From the NCBI GenBank assembly GCA_041656855.1, contig JBBACS010000003.1, positions 4,902 to 68,901 of the forward strand: 64,000 bases of DNA, read 5' to 3'. The translations under genes and the position numbers were made by a program. Source of the DNA: Minisyncoccota bacterium. GTDB taxonomy: Bacteria > Patescibacteriota > Minisyncoccia > Phycocordibacterales > GWA1-40-21. Shown piece after piece: positions 3,458-46,841 of the stretch. The notes beneath the pieces are model-generated. The model saw only the letters and a list, made by a program, of their open reading frames with translations. It made no database searches and had not been told where the DNA came from. Each line of letters starts with the position of its first letter. Positions within the stretch are counted from its first letter, which is position 1.

Positions 3458-3901
3458 TCAAGCATGGTGATACGGTTCTTTTTTTATTACAGAAATCGCT
3501 CTATATATAGATTCAGCCAAAATTAGCCGTACGAGTTGATGTGGAAAAGTTAATTTTGAAAGCGACCACTTAAGATTTGCTCTTTTATATACCTCTTCAG
3601 TGAAACCATAGGCTCCGCCGATTACAAATACAATTTTCTTGTCGGAAGCTGACATTCTTTTTTCAATAAAACCAGCAAGTTCTTCTGTTGTCATTTCTTT
3701 CCCTTTGTCATCTAGTACAACAACAAAATCTCCGCTATCAATATTTTTCAAAATTCCCTCGGCTTCTTTTTCTTTCAGAGATGTAGGAATAAGTTTCCAT
3801 TCAACTGGGAAATATCTACTAATTCTCTTTGTATAATCAGCTACCGCGACTTCTATATCTGAATCATTCTTCTTTCCTACTGAAATAAATGTGAATTTCA
3901 T
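3458..3901 (-). CDS. rlmH: 23S rRNA (pseudouridine1915-N3)-methyltransferase RlmH (SPOUT)
   Basis: MKFTFISVGKK..., VVVLDDKGKEMTTEE, VFVIGGAYGF and SLSKLTFPHQLVRLILAESIYRA. The ATG at 3901 is used because the track start is a TTG. Confidence 0.9.
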   Translation of the reverse strand: MKFTFISVGKKNDSDIEVAVADYTKRISRYFPVEWKLIPTSLKEKEAEGILKNIDSGDFVVVLDDKGKEMTTEELAGFIEKRMSASDKKIVFVIGGAYGFTEEVYKRANLKWSLSKLTFPHQLVRLILAESIYRAISVIKKEPYHHA

Positions 3902-4083
3902 CCGGTAGTGAAATTTCAAATTGTTTTTATATTGCTATATATACAATCTAAAACTTTATTTAATTATTAAAACTATTTTCGACTTTTTAACAAACTGTTT
4001 GTAAAAACAAAAGCAATGATTTGAAATTCTACTACGGGATTCATGATAAGGAAAGTATAGCAGATTTGTGCTAGAATCTCCTT

Positions 4084-7226: not shown

Positions 7227-7443
7227 TGGGTGGCTATCGGGGAGTTTCAGCTTACAGCCGCAGTACACCAAGAATCAGAGGGGGTTGGTCACAGCTTTTT
7301 TCTTCGCCGTCGCTCAGAAAAAGTTGCGAAGCTCTGCACTTGATTTTCTAATTCACTTCGTTCATAACAAAATCTACGCCCGACTCAGCTGATTTTTCTA
7401 CTGAAAAATCAGCTTCCATCTTTCAACCCTCGATAGCCATACC
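7227..7443 (-). ncRNA. tRNA-cognate minihelix-mimic element, His-type copy B (type II + TGTAA modules)
   Basis: On the minus strand, the 5' part tggctatcgagggttgaa is antisense to the tRNA-His 3' end (ttcaacccccgatagcca). The 3' end ctccccgatagccaccca is a verbatim sense copy. It also contains the 14-nt-loop hairpin and the GTAC/TGTAA hairpin. Confidence 0.65.
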
Positions 7444-7452
7444 AAAAATATG

Positions 7453-7577
7453 TATCGGGGAGTTTTTCCTTACAGGAACTGTACACCTTTCGTATCGTAC
7501 TCACTACGTTTCGTGCGATATACTCAAGGTCTTCAACCCCCGAACGTAAGTGCCTACTAGCACTTACTTAGCCGCCC
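7453..7577 (-). ncRNA. tRNA-cognate minihelix-mimic element, His-type copy A (type I)
   Basis: On the minus strand: gggcggcta, hairpin gtaagtgc..gcacttac, tcgggggttgaa (antisense of the tRNA-His T-arm), accttGAgta..tacGAaaggt, gtacag-ttccTGTAAggaa-aaa, then ctccccgata. Confidence 0.65.
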
Positions 7578-7903
7578 AAATGAAAAAGACGGCTTAACGC
7601 CGCTTTTTCATTTGGGTGCATAGGGGGTCTAGAACAATCTACTACCAACAACCACAAAGGTATTTGAGCTATTTTCAGCGTATCAAAAATAGGCGTGTCG
7701 GTCACTATATAAAAAGATCAGAAGTGTTCATTAGTACACTACCCGTCTTATGCTTCCTTTTTTTCAAAAACAGAAGCATTCCATCAATCACCGTAAGAAT
7801 GGTTCAGAGAATTTTGAGTGTTTTTATAAATAAGTTCCAGAATAAATCATGGTCAAACGACGGTCTAGAACTAAAAACACAAATGGCTATAGATCTTTCT
7901 CAA

Positions 7904-8371
7904 CTAGGGATTTATAGCCTGTCTAATTGCGGTCTCAAAATCTCCGGGAACATCCGTTCCTATGCGATAGATTCTTCCGTTTTTCATAATTATTTCAACC
8001 GCATCAAAACCAGAAACATTATATATCCACATCTTGGGCCATAGCCACAACCTTATTCCCCAGCCATAATACCAATGATTCTTCACTTGCTTTACTGATA
8101 CTATTTCACTAAGTAAGAATTTTTTCTTGAAAATTCCATAGCCAAATTTTATCTGAAGACAATTTTTATCAATTGACGTTGTTAGTGTGGTAAACGATGC
8201 AAGAGTAAACGATATTAAAACCATTATGGTGGTAATGAGAAAATTTGTACCAGAATAGTATGAGGGTGTTTCAGTCCTGGCTATAATTTGAGCCCATGCA
8301 AATAACGCCAGCACAATCAGTGTGATAATAATCATCAGATATCCAATTTGAGTGTGTTTATATGAGGTCAT
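7904..8371 (-). CDS. hypothetical membrane protein
   Basis: 155-aa ORF with two N-terminal TM helices followed by a small soluble domain. Confidence 0.6.
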   Translation of the reverse strand: MTSYKHTQIGYLMIIITLIVLALFAWAQIIARTETPSYYSGTNFLITTIMVLISFTLASFTTLTTSIDKNCLQIKFGYGIFKKKFLLSEIVSVKQVKNHWYYGWGIRLWLWPKMWIYNVSGFDAVEIIMKNGRIYRIGTDVPGDFETAIRQAINP

Positions 8372-8452
8372 AATTTATTTGAGAATTTTCTTATTTAATT
8401 GTTCGAACTATTCCAACAACAACAAGACTGGCGTCAGATATTTTTTTGCCTA

Positions 8453-9229
8453 TTATTCGGTAGCAAGCCGAATATGGCCGCATTGGCCATTCAAACTTTC
8501 AACCACCTTCATTACATCATCAATCTGAGGTTCATAAGCGGTAATTTTATCGCCATTTTTAAGTTTAAGAGTTACCAGTTTACTGTGAGTTTGAAATACG
8601 CTTTCCACCTCACAATTATTAATAGCTGTTAAAACTATATTCCAGTTACTATTGGCTTCATCAGTAAAGTTTCGACCGTCGGGAGTAGCACATTGTGACG
8701 GGTTGGATTTCATTATAGAAAAGCCAGCAGTAACACAATCATCAAAATTTCTGATCGTGGCCAATAGTTCGTTGCATCTTTCATGGCTCACCATATCACT
8801 TTTAGGTAGACATTCTTTTAATTTGTCGGTTAATGTAGTGTCTTTCGTGACTAGATTTTCAGCAATACTCCACAAAGAATAATACCGGCTATAGTATCTA
8901 TGGACAGCAACAGCGCTCGTTTTGTCATCTGATTTAAAAAAATAACCTGACCCAATTTGTTCTGTAAAATCATAACCCTTTTCTTTCATGAAAGATTTGA
9001 TTATCTCTAGTTTATCACTTTTTGTAATATACTTATTTTCTCCTATATCTAATTTTACAATGTCTTTATTACCAAAATTTAATTGGGCTATTCCTTTTAT
9101 TTGCGGCCAAGGATTACCTTCCTGAAAGATAGCTGGGAAGTAAAAAAGTATAAAAACACCTAGCAGTAAAATAATAATGGAGGTAATAAGTAGAACATTT
9201 TTATTTTTTAATGAGTGTTCAAAAATCAT
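8453..9229 (-). CDS. hypothetical membrane-anchored/secreted protein
   Basis: 258-aa ORF with a single N-terminal TM (VLLITSIIILLLGVFILFYF). Several Cys residues in the C-terminal half. Confidence 0.6.
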   Translation of the reverse strand: MIFEHSLKNKNVLLITSIIILLLGVFILFYFPAIFQEGNPWPQIKGIAQLNFGNKDIVKLDIGENKYITKSDKLEIIKSFMKEKGYDFTEQIGSGYFFKSDDKTSAVAVHRYYSRYYSLWSIAENLVTKDTTLTDKLKECLPKSDMVSHERCNELLATIRNFDDCVTAGFSIMKSNPSQCATPDGRNFTDEANSNWNIVLTAINNCEVESVFQTHSKLVTLKLKNGDKITAYEPQIDDVMKVVESLNGQCGHIRLATE

Positions 9230-9420
9230 AGTGGATTATTATTTTTCTTCTTGCTCCTGATCACAACGACTATAATGACAATAATGAGTATGAGACCTAT
9301 CCCTTGCAATCCTGGACTATCATCAAATTCACCGAATACAATAAAAAATGTTCCCAACAATATTGCTAGAATTTTCGGGGTCCAGTATAAGATTTTATTT
9401 TTTATATCAGAATAGTTCAT
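9226..9420 (-). CDS. small membrane protein
   Basis: 64-aa ORF with two TM helices. Its stop overlaps the next ATG (ATGA, 9226-9229), suggesting translational coupling. Confidence 0.55.
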   Translation of the reverse strand: MNYSDIKNKILYWTPKILAILLGTFFIVFGEFDDSPGLQGIGLILIIVIIVVVIRSKKKNNNPL

Positions 9421-9508
9421 TTGTTTGTATTATATCTTAAAAATTCACTTTATTAAAAGACTGATTTTTATAATAAAACAAAAAAGCGACCAAAAGTCGT
9501 TATTTTTG

Positions 9509-9656
9509 TTTACAATTCTTTCGGCATTAGAATCACAGCTTTGTAGCTCTCCCTCGATTCTACGCGATAAAAATGTCCTAGCGGAATAAGTGAGTCTGGG
9601 ACCAAAATTTTATAAAACTAAAGCGAACCGGTCGCAAAACCAGTCGCTCACTCTTG
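9509..9656 (-). ncRNA. rearranged fragment of the mimic-element family directly downstream of tRNA-His
   Basis: On the minus strand it shares tgagcgac...ctttag, ggtcccagac, agcggaataagtga (inverted), gaatcgagggagag and cacagct with type II copies. No closing tRNA-like stem is present. Confidence 0.4.
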
Positions 9657-9728
9657 GGTGGCTATCGGGGGTTGAACCCGAACAAAGAGTTCCACAAACT
9701 CTTGTGCTACCGCTACACCATAGCCACC
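9657..9728 (-). tRNA. tRNA-His (GUG)
   Basis: Cloverleaf read by eye: G-1 plus gtggcta / tagccac acceptor, anticodon arm agagt-ttGTGga-actct, T-arm tcggg-ttcaacc-cccga, discriminator C. No complete encoded CCA. Confidence 0.9.
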
Positions 9729-9778: not shown

Positions 9779-10303
9779 TTAATATTTCGGAGCAATCTCT
9801 TCTCCACTTTCCTTTGCACTCTGCCTTGCAAGTGCATACAAAAGACTTGATAAACGGTTTAAGTATACAAGGGTTTCAGTATCAATTTTTGTGATTCCTT
9901 CATCACTCACAGCAACGACCCTTCTCTCAGCGCGTCTTGCAAGAGTTCTAGCAAAATCAAAATCTGCAGAAATTTCATTTGCACCAGAAATAAGAAAGGA
10001 TTTTATTGGAGAAAGCTCCTTCTCTATATTATTGATAATTTTCTCAAGATTTTTTACTTCTCTTTCATTGATTTTTTTATCTGCACCTGCAACTTCTGCC
10101 TGAATAATAAAAAGGTTATTTTGAATCGCGTGAATTAATTCTTTATTTTCTTTATCATTTATTTTAGCCTTTATTACCCCCAAATATGAATTGATTTCAT
10201 CTAAACAGCCAAGTGCTTCAGCTATAGCTGAACTTTTTGAAAGTCTCTGATCACAACCGAATATATTCGTCTTTCCATCATCTCCTTTTTTTGTGTATAA
10301 CAT
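9779..10303 (-). CDS. PduO-type ATP:cob(I)alamin adenosyltransferase family protein
   Basis: MLYTKKGDDGKTNIFGCDQRLSKSSAIAEALGCLDEINSYLG is the family N-terminal signature. Confidence 0.8.
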   Translation of the reverse strand: MLYTKKGDDGKTNIFGCDQRLSKSSAIAEALGCLDEINSYLGVIKAKINDKENKELIHAIQNNLFIIQAEVAGADKKINEREVKNLEKIINNIEKELSPIKSFLISGANEISADFDFARTLARRAERRVVAVSDEGITKIDTETLVYLNRLSSLLYALARQSAKESGEEIAPKY

Positions 10304-12351: not shown

Positions 12352-12408
12352 AAATTTATTTTAATAATTTAGCATAGATTTGAGGGAAGTGCTATTTGGA
12401 TAAATGCA

Positions 12409-12523
12409 TGGGATTCTGTCACAGCTCTTTTCTTCGCCGTCGCTCAGAAAAAGTTGCGACCCCGACTCAGCTGATTTTTCTACTGAAAAATCAGCTTCCG
12501 TCTTTCGAATCCCTTAGCACCCA
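12409..12523 (-). ncRNA. tRNA-cognate minihelix-mimic element, Val-type (type II, 3' end truncated)
   Basis: The minus strand begins gggtgctaagggattcgaa, which is antisense to the tRNA-Val 3' end. Then an 11-bp hairpin agctgattttt..aaaaatcagct and the hairpin ctttttc-TGAGCGACGGCGAA-gaaaag. It ends gaatccca. Confidence 0.6.
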
Positions 12524-13733: not shown

Positions 13734-13768
13734 ACGCTTTTCCTTTGGGGCCCAACCCAAACTCAAAG

Positions 13769-13901
13769 CCCCCTTGGCAGGAAGTTCGACCGTTACACGG
13801 TCAGTACCCCCATTGGAGATTTTGTTTCGCTACACTCACAAAATCTGCTCAATGGGGCTTCGATTCCTGACGTGAGCAAAGACTTTTGCTCACTCCAAGG
13901 C
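13769..13901 (-). ncRNA. tRNA-cognate minihelix-mimic element, Arg(UCU)-type (type I)
   Basis: On the minus strand: gccttgg, hairpin gtgagcaaa..tttgctcac, tcaggaatcgaa (antisense of the T-arm), ccccattg..caatgggg helix, gtactg-gaccgTGTAAcggtc-gaa, then cttcctgccaaggg. Confidence 0.65.
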
Positions 13902-13945
13902 ACAAAATTAAAATCACCCATTTACTATGGGTGATTTTAATTTTG

Positions 13946-14017
13946 TGCCCTTGGCAGGAATCGAACCTACATCAAAGCCTTAGAAGAGCTCTGTTCTATC
14001 CATTGAACTACAAGGGC
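13946..14017 (-). tRNA. tRNA-Arg (UCU)
   Basis: gcccttg acceptor, D-arm gttc-aatggata-gaac, anticodon loop ctTCTaa, T-arm gtagg-ttcgatt-cctgc. Confidence 0.85.
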
Positions 14018-24465: not shown

Positions 24466-24655
24466 AAAGGGGCGAGATTCGGCTATTACTTAGCCAGGTA
24501 CTTTTCCGCTTCATATTATTAAGAGAGGGCGAGAATTTCGAAACTTACAGTTTCAGTACACCTTTTCTATTTTATATTCGTGATTACACTCTATAAAATT
24601 ATCAAAGGTCTTCGAATCTCGCACGAAAGCTCTCCCAGAGCTTTCTCCTCTGCGC
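24466..24655 (-). ncRNA. tRNA-cognate minihelix-mimic element, Ser-type (type I, with a second partial 3' module)
   Basis: On the minus strand: gcagagg, hairpin gaaagctc-tggg-gagctttc, gcgagattcgaa (antisense of the T-arm), accttt-GA..GA-aaaggt, gtactg-gaaacTGTAAgtttc-gaaa, then ttctcgccctctc. A second gtacctggctaagtaa..gaatctcgcccc module follows. ORFs 24580..25263 and 24591..24773 are spurious. Confidence 0.65.
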
Positions 24656-28981: not shown

Positions 28982-29145
28982 GTCCTCTCAAGCAAGCAAA
29001 CTGCTTTGCTTGCGGGTTTGAATCGAACAGCGGAATGATATTTTTTCAGCAGAAAAATGAATGAGCTGGTGCCCAGACAAATCCGAGTGACGACGAGGAT
29101 TTAGTCGCGGGAGATAAATGTAATCATGTTCCAACTGAGAGGACA
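28982..29145 (+). ncRNA. tRNA-cognate minihelix-mimic element, Arg(GCG)-type (type II)
   Basis: gtcctctca, hairpin gcaagcaaa-ctgc-tttgcttgc, gggtttgaatcgaac, agcggaat, hairpin tttttc-agca-gaaaaa, gaatgagctggtgcccagac, hairpin aaatcc-GAGTGACGACGA-ggattt, agtcgcgggaga, then ttccaactgagaggaca (verbatim tRNA 3' end). Confidence 0.7.
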
Positions 29146-35988: not shown

Positions 35989-36150
35989 TGTGCGCTTAGT
36001 TGGACACGCTTCGCATTCTCCCTCGACTAAAGCTTCGTCGTCACTCAGCTTTGTCTGGGCACCAGCTCATTCGTCCCGCAAGCTTGCGGGACATTATTCC
36101 GCTGTTCGATTCCAACACACAAGCAAAGCAGTTTGCTTGTTTAAGCCACA
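35989..36150 (-). ncRNA. tRNA-cognate minihelix-mimic element, Lys-type (type II)
   Basis: On the minus strand: tgtggcttaa, hairpin caagcaaa-ctgc-tttgcttg, gttggaatcgaac, agcggaat, hairpin gtcccgca-agc-ttgcgggac, gaatgagctggtgcccagac, hairpin aaagc-TGAGTGACGACGAA-gcttt, agtcgagggaga, then tccaactaagcgcaca (verbatim tRNA-Lys 3' end). ORFs 35990..36178, 36000..36251 and 36153..36365 are spurious. Confidence 0.7.
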
Positions 36151-43281: not shown

Positions 43282-43958
43282 TATAATAATCTGATTATTT
43301 TTGCAACATCTCTTGATTTCTTAATTTCAATTTCATCTCCGTCATTTAGCGGAATCTCAACTTCATCATTGTCAGCATAAGCTACCGCAGGTCCACGAAC
43401 TATTTTTATTTTAATCTCTGAATCTTCTTTCAAGACCATATGATCAAATTGTTCAGTACTGTTATTGAAAGCTAAACCTATTCCAACTTCAAATATACCA
43501 TCTGTAATTGAACGATAATACCCTGTTGAGCCGTAAGGGGTAGAAATAACCACTCCATCTCCTATTATCTCGCTATCAATCTTTTTATCGTTCACATATA
43601 CCTCGTAACGTATAGCGCGTCTTGGATCAGAATTATGAACGATAATTTCATTCAGACCAACGATTCTTTTACCTTTATAAACAGACTCAATTTTAATTTC
43701 CTCTTCAATTCTATATTCCCCAGAAAAAACTTTTCTTAAAGTTTCTTCTACTGAAAAATCGTGTCCTTTTTTAGAAGTTTTAGTTTTTTTAAGAATAAAT
43801 TTTGGAATTCCTGGAAAATTTTTTTCGGATTTCATAAATGTCCCATCTCCACCAACGCTCGCAAGTATGTCTGGTAATTTTTCTACAATATCAAAACCGG
43901 CTTTTTCAGCTAATTTAATTATATCCTCTGTTTTATGACCGTAGATAAGAAGTTTCAT
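43281..43958 (-). CDS. nadK: NAD+ kinase
   Basis: ILASVGGDGTFM, NEIIVHN and DGVVISTPYGSTGYYRS. Its stop overlaps the next ATG (TAATG). Confidence 0.85.
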   Translation of the reverse strand: MKLLIYGHKTEDIIKLAEKAGFDIVEKLPDILASVGGDGTFMKSEKNFPGIPKFILKKTKTSKKGHDFSVEETLRKVFSGEYRIEEEIKIESVYKGKRIVGLNEIIVHNSDPRRAIRYEVYVNDKKIDSEIIGDGVVISTPYGSTGYYRSITDGIFEVGIGLAFNNSTEQFDHMVLKEDSEIKIKIVRGPAVAYADNDEVEIPLNDGDEIEIKKSRDVAKIIRLL

Positions 43959-44045
43959 AATTTTATAATAGTTTATTTATAACCAAGTAGCAACTGATTT
44001 TTCTCGCTTATTTTATTTTTTTGTGATAATATCTTTTTGTTATAA

Positions 44046-44116
44046 CGGAGTGTAGTGTAACGGTAGCATTCGTGCTTTGGGAGCATGCGATCCGGGTTCG
44101 AATCCCGGCACTCCGA
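44046..44116 (+). tRNA. tRNA-Pro (UGG)
   Basis: cggagtg acceptor, anticodon arm cgtgc-ttTGGga-gcatg, T-arm ccggg-ttcgaat-cccgg. Confidence 0.9.
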
Positions 44117-44157
44117 CAAAAGAAAATAAGTGGCTTAGGCTGCTTATTTTCTTTTGT

Positions 44158-44290
44158 CGGAGTGAGTAAGCAAACCACTTTGCTTACGTTCGGGATTCGA
44201 AAAGGTTCTCCCATATTTTTGAGCAATTAATATTGCGAGAAAATGGGAAACCTGTACTGCTCCTGTAAGGAGAGAAATTCCCGGCACTCG
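44158..44290 (+). ncRNA. tRNA-cognate minihelix-mimic element, Pro-type (type I)
   Basis: cggagtg, hairpin gtaagcaaa-ccac-tttgcttac, ttcgggattcgaa, aggttctcccat..atgggaaacct helix, ttttt-GA-gcaat..attgc-GA-gaaaa, gtactg-ctccTGTAAggag-agaaa, then ttcccggcactc. ORF 44008..44226 is spurious. Confidence 0.7.
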
Positions 44291-44295
44291 TTCGT

Positions 44296-44329
44296 TTCCA
44301 TAATTTGGGGTGGGACCCAAATTATGGAA
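44296..44329. terminator. bidirectional hairpin terminator (mimic element / cca)
   Basis: ttccataatttggg-gtggga-cccaaattatggaa. Confidence 0.7.
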
Positions 44330-44341
44330 TCTTTCTCTCTA

Positions 44342-45874
44342 TTAAACCTTATGACTCTTTCTAATCTCCTTTAATTCTTCCTCATTTTCTTCCTCTTTCC
44401 TTTCTTTTCCTTCCTCCCCCATTTCTCTCAATTTTTTTTCTGGAAGCTTTATAAGTTCAATAGCTTTTTTATTTAAATATTCTTCTGTATTTCTTTTTGG
44501 ATCATCCAGAACTTCTTCAAGAAGTGCATGTAAAACGAAACCAATTTTGGGTCCAGGAATTTCGCCTGTTACATCCATAATTTTTTTACCATCAATGTTA
44601 AGCATTCCAACAGAAATCGGGTCTCTCATAGCTTCATCAAGCATTGCATGATACTTTCTCAGTCTATATGGATCTTCTTTTGGCCTGCCCATTCCTATTC
44701 TATCGCAAGCTCGCAAATCCATAAGATCCCAGACATTATCTTTTCCAACTCTAGCTACAATTCTTCTAACAGCTGATAAACTGATGAGTTCTGTATCAGC
44801 AAAAAACATATGTACTCTAACGAATTTAGTAACTTTTTCTATAACTTTTGCAGGAAATCTCAAATCTTGTAAAATCTTTTCTGTCATTCTCGCACCAATT
44901 ACTTCATGCCCATAAAAAGTTGGCTTTTTCTCCCCCTCTCTTTTAGATTTAGGCTTCCCTATATCATGCAATAGGGCCGCAAGTCGAACTTCTAATGAAA
45001 GTTTTTTATCAGCAGCGTGTTGCAAAGATTTCAGTGAATGTTCCCATACATCATGTATATGTGCACCGCCTTGTTCTATTCCGATAGTTTTTTCTAATTC
45101 CGGAATAATATATTTTAATAAGCCGAATTTCAGACAAGATTTTAGCCCATGTGCCGGCTCACTAGACATAATTATTTTTGTAAATTCATCACGAATTCTT
45201 TCTTTTGCAATGTTTGAAAGTAAATTTGATTCTTCTGCTAATGCTTTTTCAGTTGCGCTATCAATTTCAAAACCGACATAGTTTCCTATTCTTACAGCAC
45301 GCAATATTCTAAGTCCATCTTCTTGAAATCTTTCATGCGGATTTCCTACAGTTTTTAGAACTTTATTTTTTAAATCTTCCTGACCGGAAAATAGGTCAAC
45401 GATTTGTCCTTTATAAAAATCTTTCTTACTTACCACTAGGTCAGCAGACTTTTCGTGACTTCCCTCATCTTCAATACTCAAAGCAATAGCATTTATCGTG
45501 AAATCTCTCCTCTTTAAATCATCTTCAAGCTTATTACTGAAAGTAACCTTGTCTGGCCTTCTATTGTCAGAATATTCAGATTCAAGCCTATATGGGGTCA
45601 CCTCAATCACTTTGAGTGTTTCATCGGAAACCGTTTCGTTTACTACACCTACAGTTCCATAATTGTTTTCATAAAAAGTATCAGGAAATATCTTTATAAT
45701 TTCTTCTGGTTTAGCATTTGTCGTAAGATCCCAATCTTTAGGTTTCACACCAATCAAAATATCACGAACACAACCCCCTATTAAATAGGCCTCAAATCCA
45801 ACACCTTTAAGTTTTTGTGAAACTTCTAGGACTTCCTTTGGAATTGGACCGTATTCTGTGATAGTTTTTTTCAT
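44342..45874 (-). CDS. cca: CCA tRNA nucleotidyltransferase with HD domain
   Basis: YLIGGCVRDILIG, DWDLTT, RRDFTINA, LRILRAVR and LLHDIGKP. Confidence 0.9.
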   Translation of the reverse strand: MKKTITEYGPIPKEVLEVSQKLKGVGFEAYLIGGCVRDILIGVKPKDWDLTTNAKPEEIIKIFPDTFYENNYGTVGVVNETVSDETLKVIEVTPYRLESEYSDNRRPDKVTFSNKLEDDLKRRDFTINAIALSIEDEGSHEKSADLVVSKKDFYKGQIVDLFSGQEDLKNKVLKTVGNPHERFQEDGLRILRAVRIGNYVGFEIDSATEKALAEESNLLSNIAKERIRDEFTKIIMSSEPAHGLKSCLKFGLLKYIIPELEKTIGIEQGGAHIHDVWEHSLKSLQHAADKKLSLEVRLAALLHDIGKPKSKREGEKKPTFYGHEVIGARMTEKILQDLRFPAKVIEKVTKFVRVHMFFADTELISLSAVRRIVARVGKDNVWDLMDLRACDRIGMGRPKEDPYRLRKYHAMLDEAMRDPISVGMLNIDGKKIMDVTGEIPGPKIGFVLHALLEEVLDDPKRNTEEYLNKKAIELIKLPEKKLREMGEEGKERKEEENEEELKEIRKSHKV

Positions 45875-46581: not shown

Positions 46582-46622
46582 CAAATGAAAAATACTCAGG
46601 ATTCTGAGTATTTTTCATTTGT

Positions 46623-46841
46623 GCGAGCGAGTAAGCAAATCTACTTTGCTTACGTCCGGGAATCGAAAACCTTGAGTATATTTTTGAACTTTTACTAAAG
46701 TGAAAAAATACGAAAGGTGTACCGTCCATGTAATGGAAGATAAGCGAAGCGGTCCCGGCGCATTTACCGTAGTAGATTATATTCGGGATAGGGCCTGAAT
46801 ATAATTTTGTAGAAAGTGTACTCACGGTTCCCGTCGCTAGC
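46623..46841 (+). ncRNA. tRNA-cognate minihelix-mimic element, Gly(GCC)-type (type I, with a second partial 3' module)
   Basis: gcgagcg, hairpin gtaagcaaa-tctac-tttgcttac, tccgggaatcgaa, acctt-GA-gta..tac-GA-aaggt, gtaccg-tccaTGTAAtgga, then ggtcccggcgc. A second gtgtactcacggttcccgtcgc module follows. ORFs 46486..46698 and 46505..46843 are spurious. Confidence 0.7.

Follow-up and report, generated by a model that had tools for sequence, protein, structure and literature searches.

Integrase-type genomic islands and prophages inserted in tRNA genes (T-loop sublocation) are flanked by a direct repeat of the tRNA 3' end that starts inside the T-loop, regenerate the tRNA with element-borne sequence, insert successively at the regenerated site and occasionally target protein-gene 3' ends. 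Phage CTX and other Xer-exploiting elements (IMEX), along with integron attC sites, use folded single-stranded recombination sites (PMC3442271, PMC4246890, PMC4792948): two inverted copies of the target separated by a short spacer can fold into a duplex that imitates the chromosomal site, the integrated order is site, spacer, inverted copy, body, site, tandem arrays form, and no recombinase is encoded in the element. MITEs and palindromic repeats such as REP/BIME, Correia and Rickettsia palindromic elements are small, non-coding, highly folded, multi-copy and patchily distributed. Theta (HDV-like) ribozymes are small structured RNAs found in large numbers directly downstream of phage tRNA genes (PMC10879173), while the primer-binding sites of retroviruses and LTR retrotransposons are antisense copies of roughly the last 18-21 nt of a specific tRNA, reaching into the T-loop.

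The locus examined here, downstream of a tRNA-Arg(UCU) gene in a 64,000-nt stretch of a Minisyncoccota genome (hereafter the window; GCA_041656855.1, contig JBBACS010000003.1), resembles each of these systems in part. It holds one copy of an apparently undescribed family of small, tightly folded and possibly mobile non-coding elements that sit behind many tRNA genes of candidate-phyla-radiation bacteria (Patescibacteria), each built from an antisense and a sense copy of its own tRNA's 3' end around a conserved core. As at tRNA-integrated islands, direct repeats of the tRNA 3' end (13-25 nt, starting at about nt 56-58 of the T-loop) flank the insert and the tRNA is intact. However, the units are only 130-220 nt, have no integrase or any ORF, carry an additional antisense copy of the site and a conserved folded core, and use essentially every tRNA species. 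As in CTX and IMEX, the antisense arm pairs with either sense copy over 13-21 bp in predicted folds, but the target is a tRNA 3' end that differs from copy to copy rather than dif or attI, the elements are about 30 times smaller than a phage, and any Xer dependence or single-stranded DNA stage would be by analogy only. In contrast to MITEs, the terminal arms are not shared between copies but copied from each target, the duplications are 17-70 nt rather than 2-10 nt (range 3 to 70 nt), and it is the interior, not the ends, that is conserved and covaries like an RNA.

No HDV-like fold or Rfam match was found, the strand order does not fit an HDV/theta-like topology, and the element is separated from the tRNA by a hairpin, carries copies of the tRNA 3' end and is chromosomal in Patescibacteria rather than viral, with no hits in viral contigs. 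A primer-binding site was ruled out because the arm is preceded by TT, complementary to the genomic AA after C74 rather than to C75-A76; furthermore, the arm lies in cis beside the tRNA gene, is often split by a hairpin and has no linked reverse transcriptase. A small non-autonomous element at tRNA 3' ends is a known kind of thing, whereas the combination of target-derived antisense and sense arms with a deeply conserved covarying core is not, as far as we could find: literature searches returned no description and no Rfam family matched.

Architecture and the cognate rule

The window is 33% G+C, with bacterial -10 boxes and terminator-like hairpins, and holds 11 tRNA genes. The element behind tRNA-Arg(UCU) spans 13769-13903 on the minus strand, two bases beyond the end given in the earlier note (13901), and eight further elements were located. 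Starting from the tRNA 3' end TTCGATTCCTGCCAAGGGCAC, the features are as follows.

13945-14017, minus strand: tRNA-Arg(UCU) (ARAGORN; Rfam tRNA model, 69.2 bits); its last 21 nt (13945-13965: T-loop, T-stem 3' strand, acceptor 3' strand, AC) are target copy S1
13904-13944, minus strand: hairpin H (41 nt), a terminator-like perfect palindrome (A-tract, GC stem, T-tract) whose stem continues into S1 on one side and the antisense arm on the other
13895-13903, minus strand: antisense arm, part 1, GTGCCTTGG, complementary (one base short) to the acceptor 3' strand, discriminator A and the following C
13871-13894, minus strand: hairpin P2 (AGTGAGCAAAAGTCTTTGCTCACG; 24 nt), inserted exactly at the acceptor/T-stem boundary of the antisense arm; homologous hairpins occur in the Pro, Gly-GCC, Arg-GCG, Lys and His1 elements, and the Ser element has a different hairpin at this position
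13859-13870, minus strand: antisense arm, part 2, TCAGGAATCGAA (TCAGG + AATCGAA), the reverse complement of the T-stem 3' strand (4 of 5 bases) and of T-loop TTCGATT
13785-13858, minus strand: type-1 core (fold z-score -5.5), comprising the 51-nt hairpin P4 with a UGAG/CGAA tandem-GA motif (13808-13858), then GUAC, the 5-bp hairpin P5 with a UGUAA loop, and GAA (13785-13807); about 25 type-1 relatives, in which P5 covaries
13772-13784, minus strand: sense copy S2 of the tRNA 3' end (CTTCCTGCCAAGG), predicted to pair with the antisense arm and close the core
12384-12522, minus strand: Val(UAC) element, type-3 core, unsplit 19-nt antisense arm (covariance model R1, 85 bits)
24522-24655, minus strand: Ser(UGA) element, type-1 core
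28982-29144, plus strand: Arg(GCG) element, type-2 core (same family as type 3; R1 E = 2e-11), with a perfect S2 followed by a second terminator
35990-36149, minus strand: Lys(UUU) element, type-2 core
44156-44290, plus strand: Pro(UGG) element, type-1 core
46621-46761, plus strand: Gly(GCC) element, type-1 core, with a decayed sense copy
7451-7577, minus strand: His1 element, type-1 core, behind a degenerate His 3' end and a hairpin
7228-7443, minus strand: His2 element, type-3 core with an internal insertion of about 50 nt, plus a type-1 3' module

The earlier note claimed that every element carries the reverse complement of its own tRNA's T-loop after the T-stem 5' strand, and this observation is confirmed. 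All nine heptamers are present and cognate: AATCGAA for Lys, Arg-GCG, Arg-UCU and Gly-GCC; ATTCGAA for Pro, Ser and Val; and GGTTGAA for both His copies. Each is preceded by antisense T-stem and acceptor strands and followed by a sense copy. By our permutation count, 288 of 9! assignments give nine matches (p about 8e-4), before stem and acceptor matches are counted. TTCGAA is itself a palindrome, however, and for Pro, Ser and Val the heptamer alone cannot separate antisense from a shifted sense copy; there the flanking stem bases decide. Furthermore, the two His copies are not beside tRNA-His but 2.1 kb downstream, behind the degenerate His 3' end (GACCCCCTATGCACCC). The intervening 2 kb (about 7620-9655, minus strand) contains three ORFs of unknown function, with weak Pfam hints only, and looks like a larger insertion at the same tRNA site or a replaced tRNA-His gene.

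The rule extends beyond the window. The neighbouring CCA-adding enzyme has its closest homologues in Candidatus Paceibacterota MAGs, and six syntenic loci were taken from relatives with 74-89% enzyme identity; a pattern from one core type then found 78 further loci among 185,579 species genomes, almost all Patescibacteria (individual loci are given below as L numbers). Some record titles place typical elements, and the tRNAs beside them, in non-Patescibacteria bins (L033, Nitrospira; L014/L046, Bdellovibrionales) or in 'Saccharibacteria' TPA MAGs (many), which probably reflects mis-binning or automated labelling, while L037 and L040 look like chance pattern matches. Of 140 tRNAs in the window plus 81 loci, 53 (38%) have at least 10/12 identity, and 36 have 12/12, to the reverse complement of their own T-loop plus T-stem 3' strand within 170 nt downstream, against 1.2% of tests with non-cognate 12-mers. 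Eleven T-loop variants obey the rule, including TTCAACT, TTCGAGC and TGCAAAT. This larger set was the check the note had set for itself, namely whether heptamers would cease to track the neighbouring T-loop at more loci, and it did not refute the rule, although there are three defined exceptions: 'form B' elements, whose antisense arm is only the last 5 nt of the tRNA; Ser/Asp elements with GATGAGAA or GACGAGAA; and L027, whose acceptor-antisense part is not cognate.

The note's interpretation, by contrast, is only partly supported. The 5' half is indeed an antisense copy of the tRNA gene's 3' end and the 3' end a sense copy, and complementarity is maintained over time: in the orthologous Gly-GCC element of the relatives L001 and L084 versus the window, the tRNA acceptor pair changed (CGCTCGC to CACTCGC) and the antisense arm followed (GTGCGAGCG to GTGCGAGTG), while the sense copy kept the ancestral GGCGC. 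In many old copies the arm is perfect although the distal sense copy has decayed. This fits either selection on the S1:arm hairpin or gene conversion between palindrome arms, and the two could not be separated; typing arm mismatches as G.U or A.C yielded too few events to use. The term 'mimic' is a misnomer, since ARAGORN found only the 11 true tRNAs and the Rfam tRNA model (RF00005) did not score the elements at the gathering threshold or at E <= 10.

The note's first suggestion, inverted duplication of the tRNA 3' end, could describe a passive by-product in which fold-back or quasi-palindrome template switching at the terminator hairpin copies the tRNA 3' end in inverted orientation, leaving a functionless arm beside an unrelated core insertion. 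Consistent with this, S1-H-antisense is one continuous palindrome centred on the hairpin loop, and gene conversion between its arms would explain why the arm tracks tRNA changes, apparently even in a pseudogene, where L002 (another relative) has TTTAAATTCG opposite CGAATTTAAA. However, simple inverted duplication does not explain the conserved, covarying core, the sense copy, P2 at one fixed junction, or the same architecture at protein-gene 3' ends. The arm also ends at the same T-loop position for every core type, and arm, core and sense copy occur together, with a sense copy always accompanying the arm. We consider this reading improbable.

Its second suggestion, base-pairing with the mature tRNA or its gene, is the least likely of the readings considered where it implies a trans-acting antisense regulator annealing to the 3' half of its cognate mature or precursor tRNA and modulating CCA addition, aminoacylation or stability, and nothing shows that the element acts in this way. 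There are 19-21 nt of cognate complementarity covering the T-loop, T-stem and acceptor 3' strands, maintained by co-variation. Nevertheless, complementarity runs on without a break into the genomic trailer and hairpin (about 40 bp in all) and at position 75 matches the gene (A) rather than the CCA end. The arm also has two cis partners already, form B elements have only 5 nt of antisense, the layout recurs at protein-gene ends, and no promoter is predicted.

Core structure and predicted pairing of the antisense arm

Every unit has the order X - S1 - H - a - core - S2, where X is the tRNA up to the T-loop, S1 and S2 are direct copies of the target from about nt 56-58 of the T-loop to the end of the gene, and a is the reverse complement of S plus about 2 nt of X, often split by P2, which is conserved in sequence. 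The element-free tRNAs of the window have no hairpin comparable to H, and across all loci H was markedly more common at element-bearing tRNAs (62/78 against 19/56), although the motif classifier missed some elements. The cores fall into at least three types in the window, with a fourth, '1b', only in related loci, and all share a hairpin with a UGAG/CGAA tandem G.A motif capped by a 2-bp stem and a tri- or tetraloop. A covariance model of type 3 (R1) also detects the window's type-2 copies (E about 1e-10 to 1e-11). For type-1 cores, MAFFT/RNAalifold aligned only P5, because P4 subtypes are out of register.

The type-2/3 core is a three-way junction with strong covariation. R1 finds 121 cores in 673 kb; 96.1% of cells are paired against 71.3% in shuffles, and 28/28 pairs carry compensatory changes, though the alignment was fitted to the model, which favours this result. 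At two pairs of the core, G.U occurs 34 times against about 6 A.C, and the tRNA-sense strand folds more stably in 6/6 elements; the folded molecule is therefore the tRNA-sense strand, as RNA or as single-stranded DNA. Of 103 cores, 71 have a same-strand tRNA within 150 nt upstream, against an estimated chance rate of about 1.6%. Searches of all element regions with Rfam 15, at gathering and permissive thresholds, returned only tRNAs at the gathering score; sub-threshold hits over the hairpins and tRNA-terminator regions (miRNA-precursor and sRNA models) look like chance matches.

The antisense arm has two alternative partners. With S1 it extends H into a hairpin of about 40 bp, and with S2 it forms the closing helix of the core, an acceptor/T-stem-like helix with P2 at the junction; 46% of copies have a closing helix of at least 5 bp, against 16% in controls. 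In the predicted lowest-energy fold of a read-through transcript, S1 pairs with the arm and the tRNA's 5' acceptor and T-stem strands pair with S2, giving a tRNA with the element as a giant T-loop insert, though these are thermodynamic predictions only. Such switching could point to a host-beneficial cis-acting module in which the arm either sequesters the tRNA 3' half (a possible RNase III substrate or quality-control signal) or closes the core, whose tRNA-like P1/P2/P3 junction would then direct RNase P, RNase Z or the CCA-adding enzyme to process or stabilise the RNA, with H supplying the terminator. In favour of this are the strong conservation of the core, its covariation and G.U strand bias as in RNA, an arm that follows the tRNA while the sense copy decays, the placement of P2 exactly where the D and anticodon arms leave a tRNA, the absence of such hairpins at element-free tRNAs in the window, second terminators behind several elements, and the presence of an element at about two thirds of the 37 tRNA loci examined around one syntenic region of seven related genomes. 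On the other hand, presence and core type differ freely between close relatives at the same tRNA, some tRNAs never have an element in a given genome, arrays, truncations and copies at protein genes are hard to reconcile with a dedicated tRNA function, and the element lies behind a terminator-like hairpin with no predicted promoter of its own. We regard this module as unlikely, although it is the strongest of the alternatives.

Alternatively, the core may be a self-cleaving or self-ligating ribozyme or an intron-like RNA in the T-loop that uses the arm as an internal guide and moves by reverse splicing and reverse transcription. Conserved junction nucleotides (AGACGGA, GAGUCRGGG, UGACC) lie next to a substrate-like helix of arbitrary sequence, the guide arm spans the insertion point by about 2 nt, the predicted read-through fold is a tRNA with the element as a T-loop insert, and theta ribozymes are a precedent for ribozymes beside tRNAs (PMC10879173). 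However, no Rfam ribozyme or intron model matches even at E <= 10, the tRNA does not need splicing because S1 is present, and no reverse transcriptase is linked. A hammerhead reading of CUGA...GAAA-like strings was rejected because the bases of UGAG...CGAA form a tandem G.A pair inside a covarying hairpin, and a group II intron reading of the GTGCG at form B 5' ends was rejected because the pentamer changes with each tRNA end (GTGGA, GCGGG) and is therefore antisense. We consider this putative catalytic reading doubtful.

Occupancy, arrays and inferred mobility

Occupancy and core type differ among relatives with 74-91% CCA-enzyme identity. The Gly-UCC site is filled in L001, L082 and L084 and empty in the window, L002, L003 and L083; Pro is empty in L003 and L083; and Arg-UCG is empty in the window. 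Units also occur in tandem: L002 tRNA-Pro carries three units with different cores, of which unit 2 matches the window's element and unit 3 matches L001's, and in L084 Gly-UCC a second complete unit (H2, a2, P2, core2) follows S2 of the first, so S alone is sufficient as a target. The same layout occurs after rpsI (L009), where a 44-nt target including the terminator is duplicated, and inside the 3' end of a topA-like gene (L060), where 70 nt are duplicated. In L060 the arm matches only the start of S, 60 nt away from the hairpin and not the sequence next to it, which argues against simple fold-back copying. Sense copies are often truncated, and decay is also seen in a tRNA-Arg pseudogene cut in the T-loop (L002) and in the degenerate His 3' end of the window. 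Whole tRNA units are inverted relative to their neighbours between relatives. No transposase, integrase or reverse transcriptase recurs nearby, and no copies occurred in viral contigs, phage records or plasmid records.

Together these features suggest, tentatively, a selfish, structured insertion element lodged in the 3' part of tRNA genes and, rarely, of protein genes. In this view the insertion point lies inside the T-loop, and the arm necessarily ends with the reverse complement of the cognate T-loop; S1 plus H would give the gene back an intact 3' end and a terminator, making the insertion harmless. The unit S-H-a-core would move as a folded single strand, DNA or RNA, in which the a:S duplex imitates the target as in the folded attP of phage CTX or an integron attC site, and would recombine within S, regenerating S on both sides and allowing repeated insertion. 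The integrated order and the arrays are what integration of a folded single-stranded attP produces in phage CTX (PMC3442271, PMC4246890), and a direct repeat starting in the T-loop is the classical signature of integration into tRNA genes. Embedding between two conserved tRNA segments could also allow spread between genomes by homologous recombination. The architecture, cognate rule, covariation, turnover, arrays and non-tRNA targets rest on direct evidence from our comparisons, whereas movement itself, the single-stranded intermediate, the recombination step and the responsible enzyme are inferred.

Several results weigh against this model. Clustering of ORFs within 2.5 kb of 78 elements revealed only housekeeping synteny, with no mobilising enzyme or autonomous partner, and the only integrase-family gene in the window is a syntenic XerC/D-type gene about 3 kb from the nearest element. 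No excised or circular form was seen, and no clean filled/empty allele pair with identical flanks was recovered because flanks were rearranged in every comparison. The frequency of elements at tRNA genes, the conservation of the core across classes and the compensatory changes within orthologous copies could equally mean a host function. A purely selfish relic also does not predict arms that stay perfectly complementary to the tRNA in old copies, unless palindrome gene conversion is acting, and the model does not explain how an element acquires matching S and a for a new target: near-identical Val and His2 cores with different cognate arms fit either re-templating of the arm or core-to-core gene conversion. 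Because H looks like a good terminator, transcription of the element is itself only putative.

A more speculative and unlikely possibility, which the data do not rule out, is a new class of self-guided mobile element, in which a conserved core of about 90 nt, acting as a ribozyme or as the docking site for an unidentified host enzyme, would use the adjacent antisense arm to select and invade any sequence it matches, with tRNA T-loops as the preferred target and a spare copy of the gene's 3' end so that the host gene survives. The elements would then also drive tRNA gene turnover and inversion in candidate-phyla-radiation genomes.

If the insertion-element reading is right, many tRNA genes in a very large bacterial radiation carry a previously uncatalogued structured element that could be mistaken for tRNA fragments or pseudogenes during annotation. 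It would also represent a way to insert into an essential, universally conserved gene without harming it, and possibly a programmable, guide-like way of choosing targets, while the conserved core is a concrete new candidate for ribozyme or RNA-protein studies. For tRNA gene evolution, pseudogenes, gene replacement and flipped tRNA units were seen next to elements. In L002 a tRNA-Arg(UCG) pseudogene (9860-9945, minus strand), identical to the L003-type gene up to the T-loop and then running into P2, antisense arm and core, sits just upstream of a functional, newer window-type tRNA-Arg(UCG) (9643-9715, minus strand), indicating tRNA gene replacement. The whole tRNA-Pro unit (promoter, tRNA and element; window 43958-44342 compared with L001 13040-13430, L002 12225-12830 and L003 11500-11660) is inverted relative to the NAD kinase and CCA-enzyme genes between relatives, and the same holds for Gly-UCC and Arg-UCG.

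Other small repeats and ORFs accompany the elements. A family of ORFs of about 150-220 aa recurs next to tRNA and element in three unrelated loci (L005 1139-1699, L053 1913-2572, L054 7537-7998), with no Pfam hit beyond a weak N-terminal HTH. A second small repeated hairpin with a GGGKTGGGNCCC centre (for example AATTTGGGGTGGGACCCAAATT) follows several elements and sits inside some (window 13744-13761, minus strand; 44296-44329, plus strand; roughly 46775-46805, plus strand, position estimated; also L001, L082, L084, L013 and L057), and a terminator scan calls the Pro copy terminator-like. The sub-insertion of about 50 nt in the His2 type-3 core (about 7340-7392, minus strand) contains GTGAATTAGAAAA, and a related sequence in an L082 element, the Arg-UCG remnant, suggests a smaller module nested within the elements. 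In L083 an identical repeat of about 125 nt (AGGTAGTGTAAATATGGCGGAAACG...GGAGGCACA) is inserted directly after the CGCAC end of both tRNA-Gly(GCC) (3499-3570) and tRNA-Arg(UCG) (3865-3937), and may be another tRNA-end-targeting element.
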